In this document: positions 9,592 to 44,064 of the stretch, piece after piece
Layout: each line of letters starts with the position of its first letter
Numbering within the stretch: the first letter of the stretch is position 1
From: a virus
Taxonomy: Duplodnaviria; Heunggongvirae; Uroviricota; Caudoviricetes
Virus record (IMG/VR): IMGVR_UViG_2690316161_000025
Strand: one strand, 5' to 3'
DNA: 44,064 nucleotides
Program-made: the position numbers and the translations under genes
The notes under the pieces: model-generated
The model's database searches: none
Seen by the model: the letters and a program-made list of their open reading frames with translations, nothing else
Told to the model about the DNA's origin: nothing

Positions 9592-9614
9592 CCGGCATCC
9601 TGCCGGTTATTTCC
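9591..9614 (+). terminator. Probable terminator after C
   Basis: Hairpin accggca-tcc-tgccggt followed by T-rich tatttcc. Confidence 0.45.
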
Positions 9615-9682
9615 TGTCACCATAATCCCGCACCTGCCATCTGATTTTTTAGACTGCCATCAGAGCATTTTTTCAGGGAAGC
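9615..9682 (+). promoter_or_regulatory. Plys late promoter region (C-dependent), approximate
   Basis: Intergenic between C terminator and lys; contains tcccgcacct motif (9626-9635) shared with the I upstream region. Confidence 0.4.
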
Positions 9683-10201
9683 ATGATGGCGGGGATACCC
9701 AAAAAACTGAAAGCCGCACTGCTGGCGGCAACGATTGCCGGTGGCGGTGTGGGTGGTTATCAGGAAATGACCCGTCAGTCTCTGATCCATCTGGAAAATA
9801 TCGCTTATATGCCTTACCGCGATATTGCCGGTGTGCTTACGGTCTGTGTGGGACATACCGGGCCGGATATCGAAATGCGCCGTTACAGCCATGCGGAGTG
9901 TATGGCTCTTCTCGACGGTGATTTAAAACCGGTTTATGCGGCAATCGATCGTCTTGTCAGGGTGCCGCTGACGCCATATCAGAAAACGGCGCTGGCAACG
10001 TTTATTTTCAACACCGGTGTTACCGCATTCAGTAAATCAACGCTGCTGAAAAAACTCAATGCCGGTGATTACGCCGGAGCGCGTGACCAGATGGCCCGCT
10101 GGGTGTTTGCCGCAGGCCATAAATGGAAAGGACTGATGAACCGTCGCGAAGTGGAAATGGCTATCTGGAATATCAGGGGGGCGGATGACCTTCGCCAGTA
10201 A
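9683..10201 (+). CDS. lys: Endolysin with N-terminal signal-anchor-release (SAR) domain
   Basis: 172-aa ORF; N-terminal weakly hydrophobic Gly/Ala-rich segment LKAALLAATIAGGGVGGY, then lysozyme-like domain. Confidence 0.85.
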   Translation: MMAGIPKKLKAALLAATIAGGGVGGYQEMTRQSLIHLENIAYMPYRDIAGVLTVCVGHTGPDIEMRRYSHAECMALLDGDLKPVYAAIDRLVRVPLTPYQKTALATFIFNTGVTAFSKSTLLKKLNAGDYAGARDQMARWVFAAGHKWKGLMNRREVEMAIWNIRGADDLRQ

Positions 10202-10571
10202 AAGTTTACTGCTGGCAGCCGTGTTTGCCGCCGTTCTGTCCGGGGTGTTGTGGCACAGGCTGGACAGCACCCGCCACGATAACCAGACGCTGCGCCGTGA
10301 ATTACAGACGGAGCAACAGGCCCGCAACACGGCTGAATGGTTGTTACACGGTCAGGAACAGACGATGCAGGTATTTTCCACTATCCGTGCCGCAAATCGT
10401 GCCGCGCGGCTGGCAGACGAGACAGAACATCATGATGCAAAACAAAAAATTACAACCGCCATTACCGGTGACAATTGCAGCACTCGTCCTGTGCCTGCCG
10501 TTGCTGCTGACAGGTTGCGGGAACTCGAAAAACGCACCCGTGCCATCGGTGGTGATCCTGCCCGAAACTGA
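10185..10571 (+). CDS. Inner-membrane spanin component (i-spanin) candidate
   Basis: N-terminal TM segment SLLLAAVFAAVLSGVLW then charged, helical periplasmic region; located right after endolysin. Confidence 0.55.
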   Translation: MTFASKSLLLAAVFAAVLSGVLWHRLDSTRHDNQTLRRELQTEQQARNTAEWLLHGQEQTMQVFSTIRAANRAARLADETEHHDAKQKITTAITGDNCSTRPVPAVAADRLRELEKRTRAIGGDPARN

Positions 10572-17065: not shown

Positions 17066-17261
17066 ACAGAATCAGGCATAAAATCAGCCGCACAGATTTT
17101 TTAAAACGCGCCACGGGATTTTTAAACCGGTATTTAACGGTGTATGAATCCCGTTTTATCTTCCTTCCACTTTCTTTCTCCATTACTCAAATAGCATAAC
17201 CCCAGATTTTCCCGCACCTCCCGCAAACTGACTGCTCACAAACCATGATGAGCAGCAGGAC
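17066..17261. other. G-I intergenic region: probable location of the Mu strong gyrase site (SGS) and the C-dependent PI promoter
   Basis: 196-bp non-coding gap near the centre of the Mu genome; contains cccgcacct motif at 17211-17219. Confidence 0.4.
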
Positions 17262-18347
17262 ATGAAAAAACACGCGATTGGCATTGCCGCATTGAGTGCG
17301 CTGTCCATTGACGATGACGGCTGGTGCCAGCTATTGCCTGCCGGTCATTTCAGTGCCCGTGATGGTCGTCCGTTTGATGTGACAGGTGGTCAGGGGTGGT
17401 TCATCGACGGTGAGATTGCCGGGCGTCTGGTTGAAGGCGTTCGCGCGCTCAACCAGGACGTGCTGATTGATTACGAGCATAACCAGCTACGTAAGGACAA
17501 AGGATTACCCCCGGAACAACTCGTCGCGGCTGGCTGGTTTAACGCCGATGAAATGCAGTGGCGTGAAGGTGAAGGATTATTTATCCACCCACGCTGGACG
17601 GCGGCGGCACAGCAGCGCATCGATGACGGTGAATTTGGTTATCTCTCTGCGGTTTTTCCGTATGACACCGCCACCGGTGCGGTGCTGCAAATCCGCCTTG
17701 CTGCGCTGACCAATGACCCCGGTGCCACCGGCATGAAAAAGCTGACCGCACTGGCGGCAGACCTTCCCGACATCCTTCAACAGGAGAACAAACCCATGAA
17801 TGAAACGCTGCGCAAGCTGCTTGCGCGTCTTGGGGTGACGGTCCCCGAAAATGCAGACATCACCGATGAACAGGCCAGCGCGGCCCTGAGTGCGCTTGAT
17901 GCGCTCGAAACAGATGCCGGAAAAGTGGCGTCGTTATCCGCCGAACTGGAAAAGGCACAGAAAGCCGCCGTTGACCTGACGAAATACGTCCCGGTGGAAA
18001 GCTACAACGCCCTGCGTGATGAACTGGCACAGGCGACTGCACAAAGCGCCACAGCCAGCCTGAGCGCCGTTCTGGACAAGGCGGAACAGGAAGGCCGCAT
18101 TTTCAAAAGCGAACGTGCCTATCTGGAACAGCTTGGCGGTCAGATTGGCGTGGCGGCACTGTCGGCACAGCTTGAGAAAAAACAGCCCATCGCTGCGTTA
18201 TCTGCCATGCAGACCACCACAGCGAAAATCCCGTCGCAGGAAAAAACGGCTGTGGCGGTGCTGTCTGCTGATGAACAGGCAGCAGTGAAGGCGCTCGGCA
18301 TTACAGAGGCTGAGTATCTGAAAATGAAACAGGAACAAGAAAAATGA
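17262..18347 (+). CDS. I: Prohead protease/scaffold (Mu I; internally initiated scaffold Z shares the C-terminal part)
   Basis: 361-aa ORF; Ala/Gln-rich helical C-terminal half typical of scaffold; directly upstream of major capsid gene. Confidence 0.8.
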   Translation: MKKHAIGIAALSALSIDDDGWCQLLPAGHFSARDGRPFDVTGGQGWFIDGEIAGRLVEGVRALNQDVLIDYEHNQLRKDKGLPPEQLVAAGWFNADEMQWREGEGLFIHPRWTAAAQQRIDDGEFGYLSAVFPYDTATGAVLQIRLAALTNDPGATGMKKLTALAADLPDILQQENKPMNETLRKLLARLGVTVPENADITDEQASAALSALDALETDAGKVASLSAELEKAQKAAVDLTKYVPVESYNALRDELAQATAQSATASLSAVLDKAEQEGRIFKSERAYLEQLGGQIGVAALSAQLEKKQPIAALSAMQTTTAKIPSQEKTAVAVLSADEQAAVKALGITEAEYLKMKQEQEK

Positions 18348-20160: not shown

Positions 20161-20708
20161 TGCTGGAAGAAACCGAAGCCGCACTGCTGGCGCGCGTTCG
20201 TGAGTTGTTTGGGGCAACCCTGCGGCAGGTGGAACCCCTTACCGGCACATGGACTAACGAGGATGTGCACCGTCTCTTTCTGGCCCCTCCATCGGTATTT
20301 CTGGCATGGATGGGCTGTGGTGAGGGGCGTACGCGTCGGGAAGTTGAAAGTCGCTGGGCATTTTTTGTCGTGGCGGAGTTGCTGAACGGGGAACCGGTAA
20401 ACCGGCCCGGTATTTATCAGATTGTGGAGCGACTGATTGCCGGTGTTAACGGTCAGACGTTTGGCCCGACCACCGGGATGAGACTGACGCAGGTCAGAAA
20501 TCTTTGTGACGACAACCGTATTAATGCCGGTGTGGTGCTTTACGGCGTTCTGTTCAGTGGCACTACCCCGCTGCCGTCCGTGGTGGACATGGATTCGCTG
20601 GATGATTACGAGCGTCACTGGCAGACCTGGAAATTCCCGGACGAAACCCCGGAATTTGCCGCACATATCAATGTGAATCAGGAAAAGGATCATGATGCTG
20701 AAAATTAA
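20160..20708 (+). CDS. K: Mu K (gp37) virion protein, 182 aa
   Basis: ORF in conserved position between J and sheath; start overlaps J stop. Confidence 0.6.
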   Translation: MLEETEAALLARVRELFGATLRQVEPLTGTWTNEDVHRLFLAPPSVFLAWMGCGEGRTRREVESRWAFFVVAELLNGEPVNRPGIYQIVERLIAGVNGQTFGPTTGMRLTQVRNLCDDNRINAGVVLYGVLFSGTTPLPSVVDMDSLDDYERHWQTWKFPDETPEFAAHINVNQEKDHDAEN

Positions 20709-25416: not shown

Positions 25417-26904
25417 ATGTTTGAAGATGCTTTAAATGCCGTTAATGCTGTCCGGGATAAAATCAGCGGTGGTAAGAAAACAACCGGCAAAGGCACGTTT
25501 CGTAACGTGCCGTTTCTCGTCATCGAGGAGCAAAAACAGGCTGGCGGACGTCGCCTGGTTAAACGCGAGTACCCGTTACGTGATACCGGCGGCGTCAATG
25601 ACCTGGGGAAAAAGCTTCGCTCCCGTACATTCAGCGCCTGCATTCTGAACAGCAACGCAGAAACAGCCAGAGATGAAGCGGGTGCGCTGATGGATGCTCT
25701 TGATGCTCCGGGTAGCGGTGAGCTGGTACATCCTGATTTCGGCACTGTGGACGTCATGGTGGATTCATGGGAATGCCGCACTAAAGCGGATGAACTGAAT
25801 TATTACGCGTTCACCGTTACCGTTTATCCGTCGTTGCAGGATACTGCCCCGGACTCAGAGACAGACACCAGTGCAGCCGTACCGGCACAGGCCGTTGCTG
25901 TAACCGGTTCTCTGGGAGATACGCTGTCCTCTGTCTGGCAGACCGTAAAAGATGGCACTGCGGCGGCAACCGCCGTGATGGAAGCTGTAACCGGTGTCAT
26001 CGATGATATCAGTGATGCGGTGGACAATCTGGGGGTTACGCAGACTGTCAGCGGTCTGATGGGATCGCTTTCTGCGATGAAAGGCTCTGTGACCAGCCTG
26101 ATTAACCAGCCTGCCATGCTGGCCTCCTCGCTGATGGGGGCGCTGTCCGGCGTTTCATCGTTATGCGATACCCGGACAGCATTTTCCACATGGAACCGTC
26201 TGGCGCAGCGATTCGAACGTCGCCATGCCGCCACCGCAGGCAGACAGGGGACAATCACAACCTCGTACAACAGTCCGGTTGCAGAAAAAAATATTGCCAC
26301 ACTGAACTACGTCATGCTGGCAGCAGCACAGACATACCGGGCGGAGGCAGCAAGCCAGGCACTGACTGCGGCACTGGATTTCAGTCGCCGGATGGATAAT
26401 GCCGCCCGTGCACCTGTACTGGATGCCCCGTCCACCACAACCGGCACAGCCAGCGGGGCCAGCAGCACATCCGCTACCGTCACACAGGGACAGTTACAGT
26501 TAACTGCCATAACCCCGGACGGCGGCTTTTCACAGGTATCCTTTTCAGACAGTGGTACAGCCACGCCCCCGGTATTTGAAAGTGTGTCCGATATCGGAAA
26601 AACAGCCGCCATGCTGGGGGCAGCGCTGGATACCGTCATTCTGACGGCATCTGAGCAGGGCTTTTCGACAGACAGCGTTCAGCTTACGCAACTGCGTCTG
26701 CTGGTTGTTGCCGACCTGGAAAAACGCGGGCTGCAACTGGCAGGCAGTGAAACGCACCGCCTGCCGGAGACGATGCCTGCAATGGTGGCTCTGTACCGTT
26801 ACACAGGAAACAGCCGGAACTGGCAACGGCTGGCCCGCAGGAACGGTATCAGCAACCCGTTGTTTGTTCCCGGTGGTGTCAGTATTGAGGTGATTAATGA
26901 GTAA
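25417..26904 (+). CDS. N: DNA circularisation protein (Mu N), 495 aa
   Basis: 495-aa ORF following tape measure; Ser/Thr/Ala-rich. Confidence 0.75.
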
Positions 26905-28036
26905 TACCGTCACGCTGCGAACGGATGGCAGGCTTTTTACCGGCTGGACGTCAGTCTCTGTCACCCGCTCCATTGAATCCGTAGCCGGATATTTTGAGCT
27001 GGGGGTGAATGTGCCACCGGGTACAGATTTATCCGGGCTGGCACCGGGGAAGGCGTTCACGCTGGAAATCGACGGGCAGATTGTCTGCACCGGTTATATC
27101 GATTCGCGGCGACGCCAGATGACCGCTGACAGCATGAAAATCACTATCGCCGGACGTGACAAAACGGCTGACCTGATTGACTGTGCTGCCGTTTACAGTG
27201 GCGGACAGTGGAAAAACCGCACACTGGAGCAGATTGCGCGTGACCTGTGCGCTCCTTATGGCGTTACCGTTCGCTGGGAGCTTTCCGATAAGGAAAGTTC
27301 GGCAGCTTTTCCCGGCTTCACGCTGGACCATTCAGAAACCGTTTATGAGGCGCTGGTGCGTGCCTCCCGCGCACGCGGTGTACTGATGACCAGCAATGCC
27401 GCAGGAGAGCTGGTATTCAGCCGGGCTGCCAGCACAGCCACTGATGAGCTGGTTCTCGGAGAAAATCTGCTGACACTGGATTTTGAGGAAGACTTCCGCG
27501 ACCGGTTCAGCGAATACACCGTCAAGGGGTATGCCCGCGCAAACGGTGCTGAGGGTGATGATATTGATGCGAAAAGTATCGTCTCCCGGAAAGGGACCGC
27601 CACTGACAGTGATGTAACCCGTTACAGACCGATGATCATCATTGCTGACAGCAAAATTACGGCGAAGGATGCACAGGCCCGCGCCCTGCGTGAGCAACGC
27701 CGCAGACTGGCAAAATCCATCACCTTTGAGGCTGAAATTGACGGATGGACTCGCAAGGACGGGCAACTCTGGATGCCGAACCTGCTGGTCACTATTGATG
27801 CCTCGAAATATGCCATCAAAACCACGGAATTACTGGTCAGCAAAGTCACCCTGATACTGAATGACCAGGACGGGCTGAAAACCCGCGTCAGCCTTGCACC
27901 ACGCGAAGGCTTTCTGGTGCCGGTTGAAAGCGACCGTAAAAACAGGAAAGGCGGCGACAGTAACGGCGGTATTGATGCGCTGGTTGAAGATTATTATCGC
28001 AGACACCCGGAGAAAACGCCGCCGTGGAAAGAGTAA
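26897..28036 (+). CDS. P: Baseplate hub protein (Mu P), 379 aa
   Basis: ORF overlapping N end; position in baseplate cluster. Confidence 0.75.
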
Positions 28037-30667: not shown

Positions 30668-32022
30668 TGTTTTATATTGATAACGACAGCGGCGTAACCG
30701 TCATGCCGCCCGTATCCGCCCAGCGTAGTGCTATCGTTCGCTGGTTTTCAGAAGGTGACGGGAATAATGTTATCACATGGCCCGGCATGGACTGGTTTAA
30801 TATTGTGCAGGCGGAGTTATTAAACACGCTGGAAGAAGCCGGTATTCAACCGGATAAAACAAAATTAAACCAGCTTGCACTATCCATTAAAGCCATTATG
30901 AGCAATAACGCACTGCTGATAAAAAATAACCTCAGCGAAATTAAAACTGCCGGGGCATCAGCACAGCGTACAGCACGTGAAAATCTGGATATTTATGATG
31001 CCAGCCTGAACAAAAAAGGACTCGTTCAGCTAACCAGTGCCACTGACAGCCCCAGTGAAACGCTGGCAGCCACCGCAAAAGCGGTGAAAATTGCGATGGA
31101 TAATGCCAGTGCCCGTCTGGCAAAAGACCGGAACGGAGCAGATATTCCCAATAAGCCGCTGTTTATCCAAAACCTCGGTTTACAGGAAACGGTAAACAAG
31201 GCTGGTAACGCTGTTCAGCGTTCTGGCGATACAATGACCGGAAAACTGAATCTACCACAGACATCTGCATTCGGCGTTGATACCGATAATGCACTGGGTG
31301 GTAATTCCATTACTCTCGGAGATAACGACACTGGTATTAAACAGGGCGGAGACGGTGTCCTTTTATTCTATTCAAATGGACAACTGGCATTTGGGCTTCA
31401 ACCCGCATCTGCTGATTTTTATAAGCGGGTTGCATACATTCCTCAGGGAATAATTCCTGATGGAAGTGGCGCATTTGCAGACCAGTTGAATAATGCCACC
31501 GCGCCTTTTGTTCAGACGCAGTTTGCCTGGAATCCCACTCCTGGTGGTCATTACGTGCCGATAGTTAAGGGCTTGTCCATTCGCAATGGACAGGGCTATC
31601 CCGGCGCGGTCAGCTTTGGTTATTTGCTGACAGAACAGTATGGATTTCCGGTTCCATGTATTCATATGCGTGGCGATGGCGGTAATGATGCTTTATGGCA
31701 GTTTAACCCGAACGATAAATCTTTTATTTCACCGGGTGCTCTTGTTGCGGGTGGCATCATTTATAACACCGATGGAAATATATTTGGCGGGTGTTGGGGT
31801 TCAAATTTAGCTGATTATCTCAATAGCACATATGTAAGAGACATTCGACTTGGTAGCGCAGAATCAATATCAGCATGGCGAGGCCCTGGTTACTGGGATA
31901 CTTCTGGATATGTTCTGACCGCAGCCGGAAACAGCAACACCGATGAATTTATTGATACATTAACCAGAAGGCCTATTCAGAAGTTGATTGGTGGGACATA
32001 TTATAACGTTGTGAGTATTTGA
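30667..32022 (+). CDS. S: Tail fibre protein S (constant part Sc 30667-~31176 fused in frame to variable part Sv inside the G segment)
   Basis: 451-aa ORF; gixL lies inside the coding sequence at codons FIQNLGLQE. Confidence 0.85.
31163..31188. other. gixL, left Gin recombination site
   Basis: ttatccaaaacc-tc-ggtttacaggaa; inverted copy at 34355-34380. Confidence 0.8.
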
Positions 32023-32023
32023 C

Positions 32024-32551
32024 ATGATGCATTTAAAAAACATTAAAGCAGGGAACCCCAAAACACCTGAACAATACCAGTTAACCAAAAAAGCTGGAGT
32101 GGTCTGGCTTTATACTGAAGATGGTAAAAACTGGTACGAAGAACAAAAAAACTTTCAACCAGATACTATAAAAATTGCATACGATAAAAATAATGTGATT
32201 GTTACCGTAAGCAAAGATGTTTCAACTATTAACCCGGAAGGTTTAAGTGTTGTTGAAGTATCCGATATTACGGCAAATCGTCGCGCAGACAATAACGGAA
32301 ACTGGATGTTTCTGGATGGTAAAGTAGTAAAGCGGGAATATACAAAACAGGAGCTGCAACAGCAGGCAGAGTTACAAAAAGCCGCTTTGCTTTCCGAAGC
32401 GGAGTCTGTGATTCAACCGCTGGAACGTGCTGTCAGGCTGAATATGGCAACTAATGAGGAACGCGCACGACTGGAGTCATGGGAACGCTACAGTGTTCTG
32501 GTCAGCCGTGTGGATACGGCAAATCCTGAATGGCCACAAAAGCCTGAATAA
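32024..32551 (+). CDS. U: Tail fibre assembly protein U, 175 aa
   Basis: ATG one base after S stop; paralogue of minus-strand U'. Confidence 0.85.
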
Positions 32552-32556
32552 AAATT

Positions 32557-32576
32557 AAGGCCCGATAGCGGGCCTT
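32557..32576. terminator. Bidirectional hairpin between convergent U and U'
   Basis: aaggccc-gatagc-gggcctt; A/T run on the U' side. Confidence 0.45.
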
Positions 32577-32579
32577 GTC

Positions 32580-33113
32580 TCATTCTGGTTGTTCCGGGAA
32601 TGTTACAGGAAGAACAGAGGTATCTGTGGCATCAACCTGCTGCATGTATAACATCCAGTTAATGAGTCTTTGCCTGTCTGAATCGCTGATAATTCCCAGC
32701 GCAAGCTGTGTTTGCCAGCACTGCGTTTCCTCTCTGGCCTGTCGCAGCAAAATCTGTTTCTGAATTTCAGCCAGTTGACGTAGTTCTTCATCAGTCCGGG
32801 GGCGTTTCATGACCTTGCCATCCTGAAACACCCAGTCACCGAGAATATCGGCCCGGCGATTCGCTGTCGTGTCGGGTAATTCGACAACGCTCATTCCTTC
32901 CGGGTTAATAGACGACACATCTTTTTCAATATAGCGAATGATACCTCTGTCATCGTAAGCGATTTTTAGTGTGTCTGCCTGAAAGGCTTTTTGTGCCTCA
33001 TACCAGTTCTTACCATCTTCAGCGTAAAGCCAGATAACTCCGTGTTTCTTTGTTAACTCATACTGTTCCAGTGTTTTAGCGTTACCCGCTTTTATGTTCT
33101 TTAAGTGCATCAT
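32580..33113 (-). CDS. U': Alternative tail fibre assembly protein U' (177 aa), silent in this orientation
   Basis: Minus-strand [26 protein letters not shown]... paralogous to U. Confidence 0.85.
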   Translation of the reverse strand: MMHLKNIKAGNAKTLEQYELTKKHGVIWLYAEDGKNWYEAQKAFQADTLKIAYDDRGIIRYIEKDVSSINPEGMSVVELPDTTANRRADILGDWVFQDGKVMKRPRTDEELRQLAEIQKQILLRQAREETQCWQTQLALGIISDSDRQRLINWMLYMQQVDATDTSVLPVTFPEQPE

Positions 33114-33114
33114 A

Positions 33115-34362
33115 TTAAACGCTCGCTACATTATACCAGGTGCCATTTATATACTTTTGAACGGGTCTGTAATAAACGCCCGCTATATTATCGGCAGAGT
33201 TGGACCCTGTATCCTGAACATTAATACCAGACAATACATGACCTGACGGGCACTGGAAATTCCATGTTTGCCAGTTGTTCACACCATGATATTGCTGTGA
33301 ACCAAGACGAACATCTTTCACATAGCGGGAATCAAAATTCCCCCAGTTGCTGGGTTGTATCTGACCGTTAACAGCAAATATCACCGAGTTATCTGTATTT
33401 CGCTGACTATAGAAATGCCAGCCTGAATCATCACCAAGCTCTGCAACAGTTGGTCTTGACGAATTTCCCCACAAGCTAAATGATGCATTACGGGCAGCGG
33501 TATTTGCACTTGAAAGTGTGAAGAACTTACTTTCCCCAGCCTGAATACCCTTTAATGATCTTGCTGAACCATTTATAAAGCGGAATACATGCACACCATT
33601 AGCATAAGCATCCAGCACCCCATCACCATTTTGTTTAAACCCGGTATCGTTATCTCCTAAAACTATTGAATTTCCACCCAGGGCATTAGCCGTTCCAATC
33701 CCCAGATTTCCGCTAAAAATGGCATTAATACCGAGTATTGAGTGAGAACAATAAAACCCTCGCCCATTGTTAAAATCCAGAATGGCTTGTGCGTTCGTGC
33801 TTTCTGTCGCGGGATTAGTTGCTCCCCACTTATATGTTGTTTGACCGACAGTATAATCCTGAGTTGGAACAATAACCGTTAGCCCTTCTTCAGCAGAAAC
33901 CCGCACAGGAAAAGCCCTGCCTTCAACGTAAAAAACGCTGCATACATCATCTTCTTTAAGGCTTGTTACAATGGAATGGATTGCGCGCTCATTAGTCTGA
34001 TACGTCGAAAAATAACCTGCCGCATATGAACCACGATCAGTCCAGCCACCAGGCATTACCATTCCATTGAATTCGCAGTTATTCATTGCGTAATCACTAC
34101 TGGCACATGTGGTCGTTATAATCACTCTGGAAGCCAGCTCGCCAGTGCCGCCTGTGGAACGCCGGAAAATAACTGGATACCACTTTCCACCAATTGCATT
34201 AGACGGCGCATTAAATGCGTACTGCCGCATTCCTTTTTTCTTATCCACCTCGCCTTTGCTGTAAACATTAATGTTACTCAGGAAGCGATCCTTATCAGGA
34301 ATATCCGCGCCGTTCTGGTTTTTCTGTAATGCGCCAGAAGCCTGATTTACCGTTTCCTGCAA
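33115..34362 (-). CDS. S': S' variable part (S'v): promoterless, start-less alternative tail-fibre C-terminal module, expressed only after G inversion
   Basis: Minus-strand frame is open across gixR and would be in frame with Sc after inversion (..LQETVN.. shared at the gix site). Confidence 0.8.
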   Translation of the reverse strand: MQETVNQASGALQKNQNGADIPDKDRFLSNINVYSKGEVDKKKGMRQYAFNAPSNAIGGKWYPVIFRRSTGGTGELASRVIITTTCASSDYAMNNCEFNGMVMPGGWTDRGSYAAGYFSTYQTNERAIHSIVTSLKEDDVCSVFYVEGRAFPVRVSAEEGLTVIVPTQDYTVGQTTYKWGATNPATESTNAQAILDFNNGRGFYCSHSILGINAIFSGNLGIGTANALGGNSIVLGDNDTGFKQNGDGVLDAYANGVHVFRFINGSARSLKGIQAGESKFFTLSSANTAARNASFSLWGNSSRPTVAELGDDSGWHFYSQRNTDNSVIFAVNGQIQPSNWGNFDSRYVKDVRLGSQQYHGVNNWQTWNFQCPSGHVLSGINVQDTGSNSADNIAGVYYRPVQKYINGTWYNVASV

Positions 34363-34380
34363 ACCGAGGTTTTAGATAAT
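34355..34380. other. gixR, right Gin recombination site
   Basis: Reverse complement reads ttatctaaaacc-tc-ggtttgcaggaa. Confidence 0.8.
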
Positions 34381-34433
34381 GGCTGTTTCCGGCCTGCATG
34401 GCATGATTTGCGCTTTTAAACGGGAGATCCAGA

Positions 34434-35027
34434 GTGCTGATTGGCTATGTAAGGGTATCAACAAATGACCAGAATACAGACCTGCAACGAAACGCTCTTG
34501 TTTGTGCAGGATGTGAACAAATATTTGAAGATAAATTAAGCGGAACAAGGACAGACAGACCTGGATTAAAACGCGCTTTAAAGCGCCTTCAAAAAGGTGA
34601 CACACTTGTTGTCTGGAAACTGGATCGCCTCGGGCGAAGCATGAAACATTTGATTTCTCTCGTAGGGGAATTACGAGAGCGAGGGATTAATTTTCGCAGT
34701 CTTACTGACAGTATTGATACGTCATCTCCAATGGGGCGTTTTTTCTTCCACGTTATGGGTGCCCTGGCTGAGATGGAACGAGAACTAATCATCGAGCGAA
34801 CGATGGCTGGACTTGCTGCCGCCAGAAATAAAGGCCGTATTGGTGGGCGACCACCTAAACTAACCAAAGCGGAATGGGAGCAGGCCGGGCGTTTATTAGC
34901 ACAAGGAATCCCCCGCAAGCAGGTTGCATTGATCTACGATGTGGCCCTGTCAACTCTGTATAAAAAACACCCCGCGAAACGAACGCATATAGAAAACGAC
35001 GATCGAATCAATCAAATCGATCGGTAA
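34434..35027 (+). CDS. gin: Gin serine recombinase (DNA invertase)
   Basis: GTG start 34434 with SD gggag; product MLIGYVRVSTNDQNTDLQRNAL... with catalytic Ser at YVRVS; resolvase/invertase family. Confidence 0.95.
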   Translation: MLIGYVRVSTNDQNTDLQRNALVCAGCEQIFEDKLSGTRTDRPGLKRALKRLQKGDTLVVWKLDRLGRSMKHLISLVGELRERGINFRSLTDSIDTSSPMGRFFFHVMGALAEMERELIIERTMAGLAAARNKGRIGGRPPKLTKAEWEQAGRLLAQGIPRKQVALIYDVALSTLYKKHPAKRTHIENDDRINQIDR

Positions 35028-35035
35028 TACAGATC
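35001..35035. promoter_or_regulatory. Three clustered Dam GATC sites upstream of the mom promoter (methylation-sensitive regulatory region)
   Basis: GATC at 35001, 35019, 35032 spanning the gin stop codon. Confidence 0.6.
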
Positions 35036-35039
35036 GATT

Positions 35040-35109
35040 ATGTCTCAATAACCACACTCAACCCATGATGTTTTTTAAGATAGTGGCGAATTGATGCAAA
35101 GGAGGTGAG
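35040..35109 (+). promoter_or_regulatory. Pmom promoter / C-activator binding region, approximate
   Basis: Intergenic between gin and com; precedes SD aaggaggtgag of com. Confidence 0.45.
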
Positions 35110-35298
35110 ATGAAATCAATTCGCTGTAAAAACTGCAACAAACTGTTATTTAAGGCGGATTCCTTTGATCACATTGAAATCAGGTGTCCGCGTTGCAAAC
35201 GTCACATCATAATGCTGAATGCCTGCGAGCATCCCATGGAGAAACATTGTGGGAAAAGAGAAAAAATCACGCATTCTGACGAAACCGTGCGTTATTGA
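35110..35298 (+). CDS. com: Com, zinc-finger translational activator of mom (62 aa)
   Basis: [32 protein letters not shown]... with CxxC...CxxC; overlaps mom 5' end. Confidence 0.9.
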
Positions 35299-35944
35299 GT
35301 ATGAAGGCCAGATTGTTGGCTATGGTTCAAAGGAGCTGCGCGTTGAAACCATATCTTGCTGGCTGGCCCGCACAATTATTCAGACAAAGCACTATTCCCG
35401 CCGTTTTGTGAATAACTCTTACCTCCACCTGGGAGTATTCAGCGGACGCGATCTGGTTGGCGTTCTCCAGTGGGGATATGCCCTTAACCCCAACTCAGGT
35501 CGTCGTGTCGTGCTTGAAACGGATAACCGGGGCTATATGGAGTTGAACCGCATGTGGCTACACGACGACATGCCCCGCAACTCTGAATCACGGGCCATCA
35601 GTTATGCACTGAAAACCATAAGGTTACTGTATCCGTCAGTGGAGTGGGTTCAGTCTTTTGCAGACGAACGCTGCGGACGTGCTGGCGTTGTGTATCAGGC
35701 GTCAAATTTTGATTTTATTGGCAGCCATGAAAGCACGTTCTACGAGCTGGATGGTGAGTGGTATCACGAGATAACGATGAACGCGATTAAACGCGGTGGA
35801 CAACGAGGCGTGTATTTACGGGCTAATAAAGAGCGTGCCGTGGTGCACAAATTTAATCAGTATCGCTACATCAGGTTCCTGAACAAGCGAGCAAGGAAGC
35901 GACTAAATACCAAGCTATTCAAGGTTCAGCCATACCCTAAGTGA
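35219..35944 (+). CDS. mom: Mom DNA modification protein (adenine modification); true start may be GTG at 35249
   Basis: ORF overlapping the com 3' end in another frame; last gene before the Mu right end. Confidence 0.85.
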
Positions 35945-36059: not shown

Positions 36060-36157
36060 TGCGCAAAATTCACGCCACTGTCATATTTGTGAGCTACACG
36101 GGCATGTCGGTTGTACAAAAAATGTGAAGAGGAACAAATTTTTCCGCACGTTAGAGA

Positions 36158-36192
36158 CAAAAAAACCGCCTCAGGCAACATACCGGAGACGG
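36158..36192 (-). terminator. Probable rho-independent terminator downstream of pqiC
   Basis: On the minus strand, imperfect hairpin ccgtctccgg...cctgaggcgg followed by ttttttt. Confidence 0.45.
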
Positions 36193-36214
36193 TTATATTT
36201 ACAAATCTTTATAA

Positions 36215-36778
36215 TTAAGGTAGACGCTTTATCTCTTGTGCAATAGAAGCGGCTTCCTGACTCCAGACACCGGCCAGCACTTTAACCATCTCATCGTAAC
36301 CATCCTGAGTTTGCACTCCTTCCAGACGGAACGGACGTTTGATCAGTTGTCCCTGGTGGTTCAACAGCCACTCACCACTGACAATGACCTTGCCATCATA
36401 GCGACCGTTAAACTCCGTTACGGTAACATTGAGCGTGTCCTGGGCGCTTCCCAGAGGCTGGGAGGCAACCACCCAGCCGGGCAGTTGCGTACTCAGGTTG
36501 GCAACCAGGGTGTTGCGCAACTGTTGATCCAACGGGCTGGCCCACAAGTTGTTGTTGGCAATCACATACTTCACATCACTGGTTTGATAAACCACACCAT
36601 TCCCCGCCAGATAGTCAGGAACAGTGATCTGCTCTACCCATAACAGACGATTGCCCTGGCTGGCGGTACTTTGTGTACCGCTCTGCACCACAGGTAACTG
36701 GTAATAGTTTTTATTAATTTCGCCGGAGCTGCATCCGGCCAGCCACAGTGCTGCAATCGTCACTAGCCACTTTTTCAT
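36215..36778 (-). CDS. pqiC: PqiC (YmbA) lipoprotein of the Pqi intermembrane transport system, 187 aa
   Basis: MKKWLVTIAALWLAGCSSG... with lipobox LAGC; ATGA overlap with pqiB stop. Confidence 0.85.
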   Translation of the reverse strand: MKKWLVTIAALWLAGCSSGEINKNYYQLPVVQSGTQSTASQGNRLLWVEQITVPDYLAGNGVVYQTSDVKYVIANNNLWASPLDQQLRNTLVANLSTQLPGWVVASQPLGSAQDTLNVTVTEFNGRYDGKVIVSGEWLLNHQGQLIKRPFRLEGVQTQDGYDEMVKVLAGVWSQEAASIAQEIKRLP

Positions 36779-38415
36779 TGTTTCGCCCTCTTCGGCTCTG
36801 GATCTTTTTTGTCCTTCGCTTCAAATACCAGCGCGTTACTCTTCTCATTGAGCGTTTTCAGCACCGGTTGCAGTTCTCGCAACACCTGATCAAGGCGCTG
36901 CATATCCGCCACCATCTTGTTGTAGGCTGCGGAGCCAGGCTGGAAGCCCTGCATGCTGCGATTCAATTCACGCAACGTTGACTGCATATCCGTCGGCAAC
37001 TGCTGCATCGACTGGCTAGCGAGGATCTTGTTCATGCTATCCAGCGTCGTTTGCAGGTTTTTCATTGTGCGCTGACTTTCAGAAAGCGTACTGGTTGCCT
37101 GTTCAATCATCGGATTCAATGGCAGTTTGTTGATCTTATCCAACGCTTCCATCAGTCGTTGCTGGATTTGCGCCAGGCCGCCGCTAACGGTCGGGATAAT
37201 CTGATAACCATTAAATTCACGAATACCGGTTATTGCAGGCGTATTTGGATAGAAATCGAGATCAACATACAGTGCACCAGTGACCAGGTTTCCGGTTTTC
37301 AGCGATCCGCGTAAACCACGTTTCAACAATTCGCCAAGGTGCTCAACAACATCCGCATTTTCGCCAAGCTGCATTTTCAGCCGCTCTGGCTCGATACGAA
37401 TCAGTACCGGAATACGGTAATCATCGTTAAATGTCTGACGCATATTCGGCGCAAAGAATGGCACTTTGCTTACGGTACCCAGGCGAATACCCCGGAACTC
37501 TACCGGAGCTCCCGGTTGCAGACCGCGTACCGAATCTTTAAAGAACATCAGATAATCAATGTGATCGGTGTACAACGAATCCTGAATGCTCTTCTGATCA
37601 TCATACAAAACGAAAGCTGTTTTCGGTGCCACTGGCTGCCCTAAATCCAGACCTTCCGGCACATCAAAGCTGACACCGCCACTCAGCAGCGTTGTCAATG
37701 AGCCCATCTCCACACGCATCCCTGCTGACGTCAGATCAACCGCAATGCCACTATCTTTCCAGAAGCGAACATTGTTGGTCACCAGTCGGTCATAAGGTGC
37801 ATTGATGAACAGTTGATAGCTGATATTGCGTTTTTGTGTATCGAAGGTGCTGGTTTCAACCGAACCTACCCGATAGCCACGGAACAGCACCGGATCTCCT
37901 GGCGAGAGCTGCCCGGCTTTTTTGCTATCGAGAATCACACGGATACCTTTCGCATCAGGCGGGGCCAACGGTGGCGAGTCCAGCAAATCGTATTTATCCA
38001 TTTTGCTGCCTTTCGCGCCTGGCTGCAGTTCGATATAAACTCCAGACAGCAGCGTTCCCAGGCCGCTAATCCCTTCGCGACCAATCTGCGGTTTCACCAC
38101 CCAAAAGACGGTGTCTTTATGCAGCAATTTTTCCATACCGGAATTCAGCCGCGCTTTGATTTCAACGTGCGTCAAATCATCAGCCAGTGTGGCGCTTTCA
38201 ACCACGCCGACGTCAACGCTACGGCTTTTAATGGTGGTTTTGCCACCTTCAATTCCTTCCGCATTCGCGGTGATCAGGGTCACTTCCGGTCCCTGATGGC
38301 TGTAATGATAAAAAAGAACCCAGGCCCCAATGAGCGCCGTGACGATAGGAAATATCCACACGGGAGACCAGTTCTTCACTTTCTGGATTTTGGCTTCCCC
38401 ATTATTAGATTCCAT
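36775..38415 (-). CDS. pqiB: PqiB, MCE-domain periplasm-spanning protein (546 aa from MESNNGEAK...)
   Basis: Large minus-strand ORF with N-terminal TM segment and repeated MCE-like regions; ORF track start 38475 is an upstream extension. Confidence 0.85.
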   Translation of the reverse strand: MESNNGEAKIQKVKNWSPVWIFPIVTALIGAWVLFYHYSHQGPEVTLITANAEGIEGGKTTIKSRSVDVGVVESATLADDLTHVEIKARLNSGMEKLLHKDTVFWVVKPQIGREGISGLGTLLSGVYIELQPGAKGSKMDKYDLLDSPPLAPPDAKGIRVILDSKKAGQLSPGDPVLFRGYRVGSVETSTFDTQKRNISYQLFINAPYDRLVTNNVRFWKDSGIAVDLTSAGMRVEMGSLTTLLSGGVSFDVPEGLDLGQPVAPKTAFVLYDDQKSIQDSLYTDHIDYLMFFKDSVRGLQPGAPVEFRGIRLGTVSKVPFFAPNMRQTFNDDYRIPVLIRIEPERLKMQLGENADVVEHLGELLKRGLRGSLKTGNLVTGALYVDLDFYPNTPAITGIREFNGYQIIPTVSGGLAQIQQRLMEALDKINKLPLNPMIEQATSTLSESQRTMKNLQTTLDSMNKILASQSMQQLPTDMQSTLRELNRSMQGFQPGSAAYNKMVADMQRLDQVLRELQPVLKTLNEKSNALVFEAKDKKDPEPKRAKQ

Positions 38416-38419
38416 ACTG

Positions 38420-39288
38420 TCAGGACTCCTCATGCTCTGATTCAGGTTGACGATCCCACGACAAACGCGGGTCAAACGTCATAGCAGAAAACATTGTCAT
38501 TATGACGACTAAAGCAAACATTAATGCACCCATTGCCGGATAAATACTCATTAAACCTCCCATACGCACCAGCGCCGAGAGCACCGCGATAACGAAAACG
38601 TCAATCATCGACCAGCGGCCTACAAACTCAACAACTTCATAAATCAAATGCATTCTTTCACTGTCGCGCTTGCCATGCCCTTTGGCATCCCAACACAGCC
38701 ACGCGATGGCGATCATCTTTAACGTTGGCACCATAATACTGGCCAGAAAGATCACCGCAGCGACGGGATAAGAGCCTTCGCTCCATAACAGAATGACCCC
38801 AGCGAGAATCGTCGACGGCATCTTCGAGCCTAATAAATCCGTCACCATGATGGGCAAAATATTAGCCGGAAGATACAGCATGATGGACGTTACAAGCAGC
38901 GCGAGTGTCCACTGCAGGCTGTTTCTACGCCGAACGTACCCTTTGGTACTACAACGCGGGCACACGGGTTCATCAGCAGGAAGGATTGCCGTACAACAGG
39001 AGCACGAACGCAGCCCCTGACGTATCCCCGTGACGCCTGGTTTTAGCGGCTGGCGCAGTTCTGGCATCGGGGCGATGTCGTCCCATAACCAGCGACGATC
39101 AACGCACTGAAAAGCGCGCAGTTGCAGGACACAAAATAAACACCAGGGGAGAAAGCTGCTGCCTACCCCAATGCTGCCGTAAGCCATCAGTTTAACGAAA
39201 CTGACCAGCACACCAGCGAGGAAAATCTCCGCCATTCCCCAGGTTTTGAGTTGAAAAAGCACCCGTGCCAGTTGCTCTTTTAAACGGA
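38420..39288 (-). pseudogene. pqiA: pqiA, 3' portion only (about 289 C-terminal codons); 5' end replaced by Mu-derived sequence
   Basis: Minus-strand frame encodes multi-pass membrane protein with CxxC...CxxC (CSCCTA...CPRCS); the first 10 codons of the apparent ORF ([11 protein letters not shown]) are read from Mu gix/S sequence. Confidence 0.8.
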
Positions 39289-39308
39289 AAAACCTCGGTT
39301 TACAGGAA
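39283..39308. other. Chimeric gix-like site: pqiA-derived left half (aacggaaaaacc) joined to gixL core and right half
   Basis: Identity to 31169 onward begins at 39289; central tc and right half ggtttacaggaa identical to gixL. Confidence 0.75.
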
Positions 39309-40142
39309 ACGGTAAACAAGGCTGGTAACGCTGTTCAGCGTTCTGGCGATACAATGACCGGAAAACTGAATCTACCACAGACATCTGCATTCGGCGTTGA
39401 TACCGATAATGCACTGGGTGGTAATTCCATTACTCTCGGAGATAACGACACTGGTATTAAACAGGGCGGAGACGGTGTCCTTTTATTCTATTCAAATGGA
39501 CAACTGGCATTTGGGCTTCAACCCGCATCTGCTGATTTTTATAAGCGGGTTGCATACATTCCTCAGGGAATAATTCCTGATGGAAGTGGCGCATTTGCAG
39601 ACCAGTTGAATAATGCCACCGCGCCTTTTGTTCAGACGCAGTTTGCCTGGAATCCCACTCCTGGTGGTCATTACGTGCCGATAGTTAAGGGCTTGTCCAT
39701 TCGCAATGGACAGGGCTATCCCGGCGCGGTCAGCTTTGGTTATTTGCTGACAGAACAGTATGGATTTCCGGTTCCATGTATTCATATGCGTGGCGATGGC
39801 GGTAATGATGCTTTATGGCAGTTTAACCCGAACGATAAATCTTTTATTTCACCGGGTGCTCTTGTTGCGGGTGGCATCATTTATAACACCGATGGAAATA
39901 TATTTGGCGGGTGTTGGGGTTCAAATTTAGCTGATTATCTCAATAGCACATATGTAAGAGACATTCGACTTGGTAGCGCAGAATCAATATCAGCATGGCG
40001 AGGCCCTGGTTACTGGGATACTTCTGGATATGTTCTGACCGCAGCCGGAAACAGCAACACCGATGAATTTATTGATACATTAACCAGAAGGCCTATTCAG
40101 AAGTTGATTGGTGGGACATATTATAACGTTGTGAGTATTTGA
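39289..40142 (+). CDS. S: Sv variable part of tail fibre S (copy 2), no upstream constant part or start
   Basis: Identical to 31169-32022; frame enters from pqiA-antisense sequence. Confidence 0.7.
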
Positions 40143-40143
40143 C

Positions 40144-40671
40144 ATGATGCATTTAAAAAACATTAAAGCAGGGAACCCCAAAACACCTGAACAATACCAG
40201 TTAACCAAAAAAGCTGGAGTGGTCTGGCTTTATACTGAAGATGGTAAAAACTGGTACGAAGAACAAAAAAACTTTCAACCAGATACTATAAAAATTGCAT
40301 ACGATAAAAATAATGTGATTGTTACCGTAAGCAAAGATGTTTCAACTATTAACCCGGAAGGTTTAAGTGTTGTTGAAGTATCCGATATTACGGCAAATCG
40401 TCGCGCAGACAATAACGGAAACTGGATGTTTCTGGATGGTAAAGTAGTAAAGCGGGAATATACAAAACAGGAGCTGCAACAGCAGGCAGAGTTACAAAAA
40501 GCCGCTTTGCTTTCCGAAGCGGAGTCTGTGATTCAACCGCTGGAACGTGCTGTCAGGCTGAATATGGCAACTAATGAGGAACGCGCACGACTGGAGTCAT
40601 GGGAACGCTACAGTGTTCTGGTCAGCCGTGTGGATACGGCAAATCCTGAATGGCCACAAAAGCCTGAATAA
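40144..40671 (+). CDS. U: Tail fibre assembly protein U (copy 2)
   Basis: Identical to 32024-32551. Confidence 0.85.
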
Positions 40672-40699
40672 AAATTAAGGCCCGATAGCGGGCCTTGTC

Positions 40700-41233
40700 T
40701 CATTCTGGTTGTTCCGGGAATGTTACAGGAAGAACAGAGGTATCTGTGGCATCAACCTGCTGCATGTATAACATCCAGTTAATGAGTCTTTGCCTGTCTG
40801 AATCGCTGATAATTCCCAGCGCAAGCTGTGTTTGCCAGCACTGCGTTTCCTCTCTGGCCTGTCGCAGCAAAATCTGTTTCTGAATTTCAGCCAGTTGACG
40901 TAGTTCTTCATCAGTCCGGGGGCGTTTCATGACCTTGCCATCCTGAAACACCCAGTCACCGAGAATATCGGCCCGGCGATTCGCTGTCGTGTCGGGTAAT
41001 TCGACAACGCTCATTCCTTCCGGGTTAATAGACGACACATCTTTTTCAATATAGCGAATGATACCTCTGTCATCGTAAGCGATTTTTAGTGTGTCTGCCT
41101 GAAAGGCTTTTTGTGCCTCATACCAGTTCTTACCATCTTCAGCGTAAAGCCAGATAACTCCGTGTTTCTTTGTTAACTCATACTGTTCCAGTGTTTTAGC
41201 GTTACCCGCTTTTATGTTCTTTAAGTGCATCAT
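40700..41233 (-). CDS. U': U' (copy 2)
   Basis: Identical to 32580-33113. Confidence 0.85.
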   Translation of the reverse strand: MMHLKNIKAGNAKTLEQYELTKKHGVIWLYAEDGKNWYEAQKAFQADTLKIAYDDRGIIRYIEKDVSSINPEGMSVVELPDTTANRRADILGDWVFQDGKVMKRPRTDEELRQLAEIQKQILLRQAREETQCWQTQLALGIISDSDRQRLINWMLYMQQVDATDTSVLPVTFPEQPE

Positions 41234-41234
41234 A

Positions 41235-42482
41235 TTAAACGCTCGCTACATTATACCAGGTGCCATTTATATACTTTTGAACGGGTCTGTAATAAACGCC
41301 CGCTATATTATCGGCAGAGTTGGACCCTGTATCCTGAACATTAATACCAGACAATACATGACCTGACGGGCACTGGAAATTCCATGTTTGCCAGTTGTTC
41401 ACACCATGATATTGCTGTGAACCAAGACGAACATCTTTCACATAGCGGGAATCAAAATTCCCCCAGTTGCTGGGTTGTATCTGACCGTTAACAGCAAATA
41501 TCACCGAGTTATCTGTATTTCGCTGACTATAGAAATGCCAGCCTGAATCATCACCAAGCTCTGCAACAGTTGGTCTTGACGAATTTCCCCACAAGCTAAA
41601 TGATGCATTACGGGCAGCGGTATTTGCACTTGAAAGTGTGAAGAACTTACTTTCCCCAGCCTGAATACCCTTTAATGATCTTGCTGAACCATTTATAAAG
41701 CGGAATACATGCACACCATTAGCATAAGCATCCAGCACCCCATCACCATTTTGTTTAAACCCGGTATCGTTATCTCCTAAAACTATTGAATTTCCACCCA
41801 GGGCATTAGCCGTTCCAATCCCCAGATTTCCGCTAAAAATGGCATTAATACCGAGTATTGAGTGAGAACAATAAAACCCTCGCCCATTGTTAAAATCCAG
41901 AATGGCTTGTGCGTTCGTGCTTTCTGTCGCGGGATTAGTTGCTCCCCACTTATATGTTGTTTGACCGACAGTATAATCCTGAGTTGGAACAATAACCGTT
42001 AGCCCTTCTTCAGCAGAAACCCGCACAGGAAAAGCCCTGCCTTCAACGTAAAAAACGCTGCATACATCATCTTCTTTAAGGCTTGTTACAATGGAATGGA
42101 TTGCGCGCTCATTAGTCTGATACGTCGAAAAATAACCTGCCGCATATGAACCACGATCAGTCCAGCCACCAGGCATTACCATTCCATTGAATTCGCAGTT
42201 ATTCATTGCGTAATCACTACTGGCACATGTGGTCGTTATAATCACTCTGGAAGCCAGCTCGCCAGTGCCGCCTGTGGAACGCCGGAAAATAACTGGATAC
42301 CACTTTCCACCAATTGCATTAGACGGCGCATTAAATGCGTACTGCCGCATTCCTTTTTTCTTATCCACCTCGCCTTTGCTGTAAACATTAATGTTACTCA
42401 GGAAGCGATCCTTATCAGGAATATCCGCGCCGTTCTGGTTTTTCTGTAATGCGCCAGAAGCCTGATTTACCGTTTCCTGCAA
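41235..42482 (-). CDS. S': S'v (copy 2)
   Basis: Identical to 33115-34362. Confidence 0.8.
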   Translation of the reverse strand: MQETVNQASGALQKNQNGADIPDKDRFLSNINVYSKGEVDKKKGMRQYAFNAPSNAIGGKWYPVIFRRSTGGTGELASRVIITTTCASSDYAMNNCEFNGMVMPGGWTDRGSYAAGYFSTYQTNERAIHSIVTSLKEDDVCSVFYVEGRAFPVRVSAEEGLTVIVPTQDYTVGQTTYKWGATNPATESTNAQAILDFNNGRGFYCSHSILGINAIFSGNLGIGTANALGGNSIVLGDNDTGFKQNGDGVLDAYANGVHVFRFINGSARSLKGIQAGESKFFTLSSANTAARNASFSLWGNSSRPTVAELGDDSGWHFYSQRNTDNSVIFAVNGQIQPSNWGNFDSRYVKDVRLGSQQYHGVNNWQTWNFQCPSGHVLSGINVQDTGSNSADNIAGVYYRPVQKYINGTWYNVASV

Positions 42483-42500
42483 ACCGAGGTTTTAGATAAT
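42475..42500. other. gixR (copy 2)
   Basis: Identical to 34355-34380. Confidence 0.8.
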
Positions 42501-42553
42501 GGCTGTTTCCGGCCTGCATGGCATGATTTGCGCTTTTAAACGGGAGATCCAGA

Positions 42554-43147
42554 GTGCTGATTGGCTATGTAAGGGTATCAACAAATGACCAGAATACAGA
42601 CCTGCAACGAAACGCTCTTGTTTGTGCAGGATGTGAACAAATATTTGAAGATAAATTAAGCGGAACAAGGACAGACAGACCTGGATTAAAACGCGCTTTA
42701 AAGCGCCTTCAAAAAGGTGACACACTTGTTGTCTGGAAACTGGATCGCCTCGGGCGAAGCATGAAACATTTGATTTCTCTCGTAGGGGAATTACGAGAGC
42801 GAGGGATTAATTTTCGCAGTCTTACTGACAGTATTGATACGTCATCTCCAATGGGGCGTTTTTTCTTCCACGTTATGGGTGCCCTGGCTGAGATGGAACG
42901 AGAACTAATCATCGAGCGAACGATGGCTGGACTTGCTGCCGCCAGAAATAAAGGCCGTATTGGTGGGCGACCACCTAAACTAACCAAAGCGGAATGGGAG
43001 CAGGCCGGGCGTTTATTAGCACAAGGAATCCCCCGCAAGCAGGTTGCATTGATCTACGATGTGGCCCTGTCAACTCTGTATAAAAAACACCCCGCGAAAC
43101 GAACGCATATAGAAAACGACGATCGAATCAATCAAATCGATCGGTAA
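42554..43147 (+). CDS. gin: Gin serine recombinase (copy 2)
   Basis: Identical to 34434-35027. Confidence 0.95.
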   Translation: MLIGYVRVSTNDQNTDLQRNALVCAGCEQIFEDKLSGTRTDRPGLKRALKRLQKGDTLVVWKLDRLGRSMKHLISLVGELRERGINFRSLTDSIDTSSPMGRFFFHVMGALAEMERELIIERTMAGLAAARNKGRIGGRPPKLTKAEWEQAGRLLAQGIPRKQVALIYDVALSTLYKKHPAKRTHIENDDRINQIDR

Positions 43148-43229
43148 TACAGATCGATTATGTCTCAATAACCACACTCAACCCATGATGTTTTTTAAGA
43201 TAGTGGCGAATTGATGCAAAGGAGGTGAG

Positions 43230-43418
43230 ATGAAATCAATTCGCTGTAAAAACTGCAACAAACTGTTATTTAAGGCGGATTCCTTTGATCACATTGAAAT
43301 CAGGTGTCCGCGTTGCAAACGTCACATCATAATGCTGAATGCCTGCGAGCATCCCATGGAGAAACATTGTGGGAAAAGAGAAAAAATCACGCATTCTGAC
43401 GAAACCGTGCGTTATTGA
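43230..43418 (+). CDS. com: Com (copy 2)
   Basis: Identical to 35110-35298. Confidence 0.9.
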
Positions 43419-44064
43419 GTATGAAGGCCAGATTGTTGGCTATGGTTCAAAGGAGCTGCGCGTTGAAACCATATCTTGCTGGCTGGCCCGCACAATTATT
43501 CAGACAAAGCACTATTCCCGCCGTTTTGTGAATAACTCTTACCTCCACCTGGGAGTATTCAGCGGACGCGATCTGGTTGGCGTTCTCCAGTGGGGATATG
43601 CCCTTAACCCCAACTCAGGTCGTCGTGTCGTGCTTGAAACGGATAACCGGGGCTATATGGAGTTGAACCGCATGTGGCTACACGACGACATGCCCCGCAA
43701 CTCTGAATCACGGGCCATCAGTTATGCACTGAAAACCATAAGGTTACTGTATCCGTCAGTGGAGTGGGTTCAGTCTTTTGCAGACGAACGCTGCGGACGT
43801 GCTGGCGTTGTGTATCAGGCGTCAAATTTTGATTTTATTGGCAGCCATGAAAGCACGTTCTACGAGCTGGATGGTGAGTGGTATCACGAGATAACGATGA
43901 ACGCGATTAAACGCGGTGGACAACGAGGCGTGTATTTACGGGCTAATAAAGAGCGTGCCGTGGTGCACAAATTTAATCAGTATCGCTACATCAGGTTCCT
44001 GAACAAGCGAGCAAGGAAGCGACTAAATACCAAGCTATTCAAGGTTCAGCCATACCCTAAGTGA
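43339..44064 (+). CDS. mom: Mom (copy 2); window ends at its stop codon
   Basis: Identical to 35219-35944. Confidence 0.85.

Follow-up and report, generated by a model that had tools for sequence, protein, structure and literature searches.

Phage Mu offers, in its late promoters, a textbook case of activator-dependent transcription. The activator C recognizes an operator with the consensus TTAT-N5-6-ATAA (PMC12867686); its dyad is centred at -43.5, and the bases directly 3' of the dyad are critical (PMC2582627). Single-base mutagenesis of Plys (Chiang and Howe 1993) identified the -10 region and positions -52 to -34 as required, according to Jiang and Howe 2008 (PMC2582627), and C protects approximately -30 to -55 at both Plys and Pmom (PMC2582627). 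A cryo-EM preprint places a C tetramer over the dyad, immediately 5' of a -35 element that is non-optimal, in contact with the beta flap-tip helix, sigma-70 region 4 and the C-terminal domain of alpha (bioRxiv 10.1101/2025.05.02.651988). Dependence on C in vitro has been reported, and activation takes place at the isomerisation step for Plys, PI and PP but not for Pmom, a distinction that the authors attribute to promoter architecture (Swapna, Kumari and Nagaraja 2015, PMC4461284). The legend to Fig. 1B of that study notes an underlined 10-bp match and gives it no function. At the Mu middle promoter Pm, the paralogous activator Mor binds a 16-bp dyad likewise centred at -43.5, and the bases directly downstream of this dyad are important (Artsimovitch and Howe 1996; PMC2582627; PMC4390567). 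The Mor operator differs in sequence from that of C, and Mor requires the C-terminal domains of both alpha and sigma.

We examined a stretch of 44,064 nucleotides (IMG/VR record IMGVR_UViG_2690316161_000025; hereafter the window) that holds a Mu-type prophage. Between positions 9000 and 18000 it is 99.2% identical to the Shigella phage SfMu, 98.7% to D108 and 97.9% to Mu. Window position 1 corresponds to approximately Mu 1099, and the right end of Mu falls at approximately 36059. GenBank AF083977 annotates the four late promoters of Mu as 67-bp regulatory features, citing PMID 2522923 (Margolin, Rao and Howe 1989), and we mapped these onto the window (Table 1). The prophage promoters match those of Mu at 65 to 67 of the 67 positions, with two substitutions in Plys, one in PI and two in the Pmom operator spacer.

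Table 1. Late promoter features and copies of the 10-base word in the window. Positions relative to the start carry an uncertainty of about 1-2 nucleotides; index is the position within the 67-bp feature.
Feature	Window	Mu (AF083977)	Strand	Remarks
Plys, C-dependent late promoter	9609-9675	10403-10469	+	AF083977 feature mapped, 2 mismatches; about -53 to +14
Plys C operator, imperfect 16 bp	9611-9626		+	-51 to -36; right half-site ATAA at 9622-9625
TCCCGCACCT, copy 1	9626-9635		+	Plys -36 to -27; index 18-27
Plys -10 hexamer TAGACT	9650-9655		+	inferred start near 9662
PI, C-dependent late promoter	17183-17249	17977-18043	+	AF083977 feature mapped
PI half-site ATAA	17196-17199		+	
PI flank CCCC	17200-17203		+	
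TCCCGCACCT, copy 2	17210-17219		+	PI -26 to -17; index 28-37; spacer
PI -10 hexamer CAAACT	17224-17229		+	inferred start near 17236
PP, P-operon late promoter	26496-26562	27287-27353	+	within gene N; identical to Mu
PP half-site ATAA	26509-26512		+	
PP -10 hexamer TATCCT	26537-26542		+	start near 26549
Pmom	35035-35101	35693-35759	+	AF083977 feature mapped
Pmom TTAT-N6-ATAA	35038-35051		+	
Pmom -10 hexamer TAAGAT			+	
Second Pmom, exact copy	43155-43221			

A gapless alignment of the four features brings CATAA (AATAA in Pmom) together at index 13-17 and the -10 hexamers at index 42-47. We set index 47 as -7, a numbering based on secondary descriptions and the GenBank features. It recovers the published centre of the 16-bp C dyad at -43.5, with the Pmom TTAT-N6-ATAA at index 4-17, and also the published 19-bp gap between the proposed Pmom -35 element, ACCACA, and TAAGAT. 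In this register ATAA, the right half-site, occupies -40 to -37 in each of the four; Pmom has a complete dyad, and Plys, PI and PP each have a degenerate left half. Common to all four is (c)ATAA-yCCC at -41 to -33, placed 24 nucleotides ahead of a -10 hexamer, and none has a consensus -35. A consensus scan of the Plys and PI regions found no sigma-70 consensus promoter. With their -10 hexamers, the lack of a consensus -35, the C operator centred at -43.5 and ATAA-yCCC, the prophage promoters show no essential difference from the C-dependent late promoters of Mu. The yCCC flank is analogous to the important bases downstream of the Mor dyad at Pm.

When the window was searched for this architecture, we recovered Plys, PI, PP, Pmom, the Pmom duplicate and one further match, at 20218-20284 (GGAA-CCCC ... 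GAGGAT), inside a head-tail connector gene. The last is probably spurious, because about 1.2 matches are expected by chance. At Plys, the hairpin that follows gene C (9592-9612, AACCGGCA..TGCCGGTT) is a terminator by Mu annotation; a simple terminator scan made no call at this hairpin. Its T-rich tail, TTATTTCC, reaches into the left part of the C operator at Plys, so that terminator and operator overlap.

The original prediction was that a CCCGCA(CCT) word lies where C-dependent late promoters are expected upstream of lys, I and P, and may be part of the C-binding or -35-proximal element. Two exact copies of the 10-mer TCCCGCACCT are indeed present, and the distances given for them, 56 bp to the lys ATG and 51 bp to the I ATG, are correct within a few bases (lys starts at 9683 if the first ATG is taken or at 9686 as annotated in Mu; the I ATG is at 17262). 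Both copies fall within AF083977 promoter features, and neither has changed relative to Mu. The third copy, GCCCGCAGG at 26832-26840 (+ strand), exists 64 bp before the P ATG (26897), but it has only CCCGCA in common with the 10-mer and is located at about +284 to +292 of the PP transcript, within the part of gene N that encodes protein and outside any promoter. PP had been assumed to adjoin the P ATG, which was mistaken: the promoter is about 335 bp further up. A second word, ACC(C)ATGATG, proposed as common to mom and I, is real in the form of the 7-bp CCATGAT, but occupies -28 to -18 in Pmom and +5 to +15 in PI; common words of 7 bp are the norm in promoter shuffles.

Measured from the operator and from the -10 hexamer, the two copies of the 10-mer occupy different places, exactly 10 bp out of register between Plys and PI. 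The Plys copy directly abuts the ATAA half-site, so that TCCC (9626-9629) forms the operator flank and CCCGCA, at -35 to -30, fills the -35 hexamer slot 17 bp from TAGACT. Compared with activator-dependent sigma-70 promoters, CCCGCA of Plys stands in a non-consensus -35 slot, matching TTGACA at two of six positions, whereas the PI copy lies inside the 17-bp spacer. There it makes up the first repeat of a 9-bp tandem, TCCCGCACC / TCCCGCAAA (17210-17227), that runs into the -10 hexamer. At the position corresponding to the Plys copy (-36 to -27), PI has CCCCAGATTT, PP has CCCCGGACGG and Pmom has CCACACTCAA; the 10-mer is absent from PP and Pmom altogether.

Judged by the published limits, the Plys copy overlaps the C footprint by seven bases and the required region by three, and the PI copy overlaps neither, all with a numbering uncertainty of about 1-2 nucleotides. 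Only T-36, C-35 and C-34 of the Plys copy lie in the required region, since that region spans -52 to -34. The proposed role as a C-binding or -35-proximal element is supported in part, at Plys, where the word directly follows the operator half-site and its first bases are among those reported as required, but not at PI, where the copy also falls outside the -30 to -60 interval in which the element had been expected.

Window-wide, the 10-mer with at most one mismatch is not enriched (4 matches versus 2.95 expected), and CCCGCA occurs at background frequency (41 versus 35 +/- 6.7 expected); TCCCGCA is marginal (12 versus 7.2 expected). Within the promoters, TCCCGCACCT is the sole 10-bp word common to Plys and PI, and the similarity around it extends to 14 of 17 positions (ATAATCCCGCACCTGCC versus ATTTTCCCGCACCTCCC). 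A shared word of at least 10 bp arose among the four 67-bp promoters in 3.1% of dinucleotide shuffles, among the 24-nucleotide spacers only in 0.25%, and for the Plys-PI pair alone in 0.1%. The match between Plys and PI is thus nominally unusual, in a test made post hoc.

That match is already known and in print, as it appears to be the feature underlined in Fig. 1B of PMC4461284. To the published figure we add the placement of the word at -36 to -27 in one promoter and -26 to -17 in the other, and its lack of conservation in relatives.

For comparison, loci were collected as homologues of C, I and Lys in IMG/VR and of I in GTDB genomes (individual loci are given L numbers). The GTDB scan contributed seven loci, from Kluyvera, Erwinia, Apirhabdus, Edwardsiella and an Enterobacteriaceae isolate. 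The comparative set is modest, with about nine Plys lineages, seven PI lineages and four PP lineages. Identity to the window's proteins is 52-73% for C and 50-77% for I. All recognisable orthologues of Plys, PI and PP keep an NNAA half-site, yCCC (or a lineage-specific variant) and exactly 24 nucleotides to the -10 hexamer; orthologous PP sites were found in register in L061, L063, L064 and L066.

Although C and the promoter architecture are retained in these orthologues, the 10-mer is not. At Plys, TCCC at -36 to -33 is kept in eight of nine lineages and the remainder of the word varies: Mu-type sequences have TCCCGCACCT at -36 to -27, and the other lineages have TCCCAAAGCC, TCCCCGATAC, TCCCCGCCAG, TCACCTCTCT, ACCCACACCC, TCCCCTGAGT, TCCCACCGTT and TCCCTTTCTA. 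PI orthologues match the word at only one to five of ten positions at -26 to -17. Information content across 16 promoters follows the same division, at 1.31 bits per position for -40 to -33, 0.17 for -32 to -27, 0.21 for -26 to -17 and 0.89 for the -10 hexamer. Comparison across the four late promoters and their relatives, which the original prediction had proposed as a check, accordingly finds no conservation of the word beyond TCCC; the element truly in common is ATAA-yCCC.

Relatives that carry both promoters are informative about register. In the seven other lineages with both Plys and PI known, we found no out-of-register word of more than 6 bp common to the two spacers; four of these lineages have their longest common word in register, at -36/-35. 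Such in-register words include TCACCT in Kluyvera and TCCCCG(AT) in the Erwinia-type lineage, and in the Kluyvera lineage GGAA-TCACC occurs in Plys, PI and PP alike. The flank at -36 to -31 co-varies with lineage in this manner across about nine lineages, which supports the published view that the functional operator takes in the bases just 3' of the dyad. Judging from these alignments, the flank from -36 to -31 behaves as part of the operator because it is conserved in register and lineage by lineage, and the rest of the spacer, which is not so conserved, does not.

Operator variants are themselves lineage-specific, and recur in register across the late promoters of one phage: CAGATACC-GGAA-TCACC and CAGATACC-GGAA-TCCCCG, in L062/L063/L066 (Kluyvera), L067, and L022 with L051, take the place of (C)C-ATAA-yCCC in Mu. 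The comparative sequences suggest that operator and flank have co-evolved with the C protein of each lineage. The downstream ends of the spacers (-17 to -13) also differ, in that a T-run usually precedes the -10 hexamer in Plys orthologues, as it does in Pmom, and PI orthologues are C/G-rich and CCGC-like there.

We consider it probable that the late promoters do not share the 10-mer as a regulatory element in its own right, and that it is instead a peculiarity of the Mu-type lineage without a common positional role in C binding or in contacts with RNA polymerase. All four promoters share one architecture, namely an imperfect TTAT-N6-ATAA-type C operator at -43.5 followed by yCCC at -36 to -33, with the -10 hexamer exactly 24 nucleotides past the half-site and no consensus -35. 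In Plys, the first three to five bases of the word (TCCC, perhaps TCCCG) would serve as the operator-proximal flank and a weak -35 slot, adjoining the site of C and sigma-70 region 4, and the remaining bases would be unconstrained, pyrimidine-rich spacer. In PI, the whole word lies one helical turn further downstream, as half of the local 9-bp tandem, in spacer that would be unconstrained. The identity of the two copies could have arisen by chance in two C-rich spacers, or through a historical short sequence transfer or slippage. The positions of the copies, their register, the pattern of conservation and the earlier publication are shown directly, and from these we infer that neither -32 to -27 of Plys nor -26 to -17 of PI has a function. 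Several observations sit less easily with this account: the probability of the spacer-only match, about 0.001-0.0025, makes pure chance uncomfortable; the 10-bp offset preserves the helical face; and TCCCGCA occurs three times in Plys and PI together, at Plys -36 and at PI -26 and -17. The Plys copy is also invariant in 20 Mu-type sequences, with only three variable sites in 95 bp, but this says little because those sequences are about 99% identical overall.

That historical transfer or slippage alone produced the match has, in our estimation, a small chance of being the whole explanation. A short patch would have moved between Plys and PI by gene conversion or template switching, or local slippage would have acted, in the latter case also making the PI tandem, and no regulatory role would be involved. 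The spacer shuffles, the restriction of the match to the Mu-type lineage (absent in the seven others), the tandem itself and the similarity of the flanks are all in keeping with such an event. However, 10 bp is very short for homologous exchange, and the PI promoter of the nearest outgroup, L031, already has a related spacer (TC-CCCG...CCCCGCA), so that point substitution from a C-rich ancestor would suffice; no direction from donor to recipient emerges.

It is improbable that the word functions as an auxiliary element for which a shift of 10 bp along one helical face makes no difference, read through a secondary contact of the C tetramer or RNA polymerase, or by some other host or phage factor, and tuning Plys and PI differently from PP and Pmom. 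An offset of exactly 10 bp and the nominal significance in the shuffles would fit such an element, as would the activation of Plys, PI and PP, and not Pmom, at isomerisation (PMC4461284); yet PP lacks the word and behaves like Plys and PI (PMC4461284). The required region of Plys ends at -34 (PMC2582627), before most of the word. Position-tolerant function is unlikely because PP and the relatives lack the word, because the near-identical L039 carries a mutated PI copy, and because RNA polymerase contacts depend strictly on position, so that the same sequence at -36 and at -26 cannot make the same contact. Over 700 positions L039 is 98.7% identical to the window, and two of its nine differences there, at 17210 and 17216, fall inside that copy. 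The more specific proposal, that TCCCGCA(CCT) is an auxiliary element confined to the Mu-type lineage and read by a component of the C-RNA polymerase complex or by another factor, is quite improbable; if true, the element would govern how strongly, or when, the lysis and head operons are expressed relative to each other.

That the word is part of a shared C-binding or -35-proximal element is highly improbable: it would hold at Plys only, where the word adjoins the operator and overlaps -36 to -34, and the annotated positions of the promoters refute it at PI and at P, the PI copy being out of register and the P copy outside PP, while PP and Pmom carry other sequences at the Plys word position and CCCGCA is at background frequency.

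The 10-bp match is of low importance and was already drawn in a published figure. The analysis corrects the position of PP, and identifies the in-register ATAA-yCCC, 24 nucleotides before the -10 hexamer, as the real common element.

Two other derivations of the PI copy were considered and rejected. If PI had another C operator 10 bp away from the first, bringing the word into register, it would occupy index 13-28, but CATAACCCCAGATTTT at this position has no TTAT/ATAA dyad, and the corresponding -10 slot, GCTCAC, holds no hexamer. Paralogy of the two promoters, with a 10-bp insertion in PI, would extend beyond the word, but the sequences 3' of it are unrelated.

The I leader region contains an inverted repeat at 17230-17264, with one arm just after the PI -10 hexamer and the other just before the I start codon (CTGCTCA/TGAGCAG in the window). 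In the I leaders of L041-L061 the arm after the -10 hexamer is GGCC, GACC or GGTCCG, forming inverted repeats such as GGCC...GGCC with apparent compensatory changes. The 5' arm lies at about -6 to -1 and so may not be transcribed. RNAalifold gave only four pairs, one of them covarying, which is weak support. From +1, the window I-leader RNA folds no better than shuffled sequences (z = 0.41). An RNA hairpin in the I leader was considered and rejected as an explanation of ACCATGATG; its 5' arm lies upstream of the inferred start.

The second Pmom belongs to a stretch of 4,776 bp that is present twice in direct orientation without a single mismatch (31169-35944 and 39289-44064) and covers the G segment from the left gix site, gin, com and mom; the second copy reaches the window end. 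Between the right end of Mu and the second G-segment copy, positions 36060-39288 carry E. coli pqiC-pqiB-pqiA', which many E. coli chromosomes match at 100% identity. The pqiA gene is truncated at 39288, exactly at the gix sequence AAACCTCGGTTTACAGGAA, a junction found in none of 5,426 complete E. coli genomes. Possible origins of this junction are a rearrangement mediated by Gin or Mu, an incomplete second copy of Mu, or an artefact of assembly.

Among the relatives, the SAR-endolysin gene of an Erwinia-type Mu relative has approximately eight tandem copies of CCCCAAAAG at its 5' end (L023, approximately 2030-2100; L067, approximately 2230-2300). The tandem adds in-frame repeats to the N-terminus of the SAR-endolysin, and the close relatives L022 and L024 have one or two copies only.
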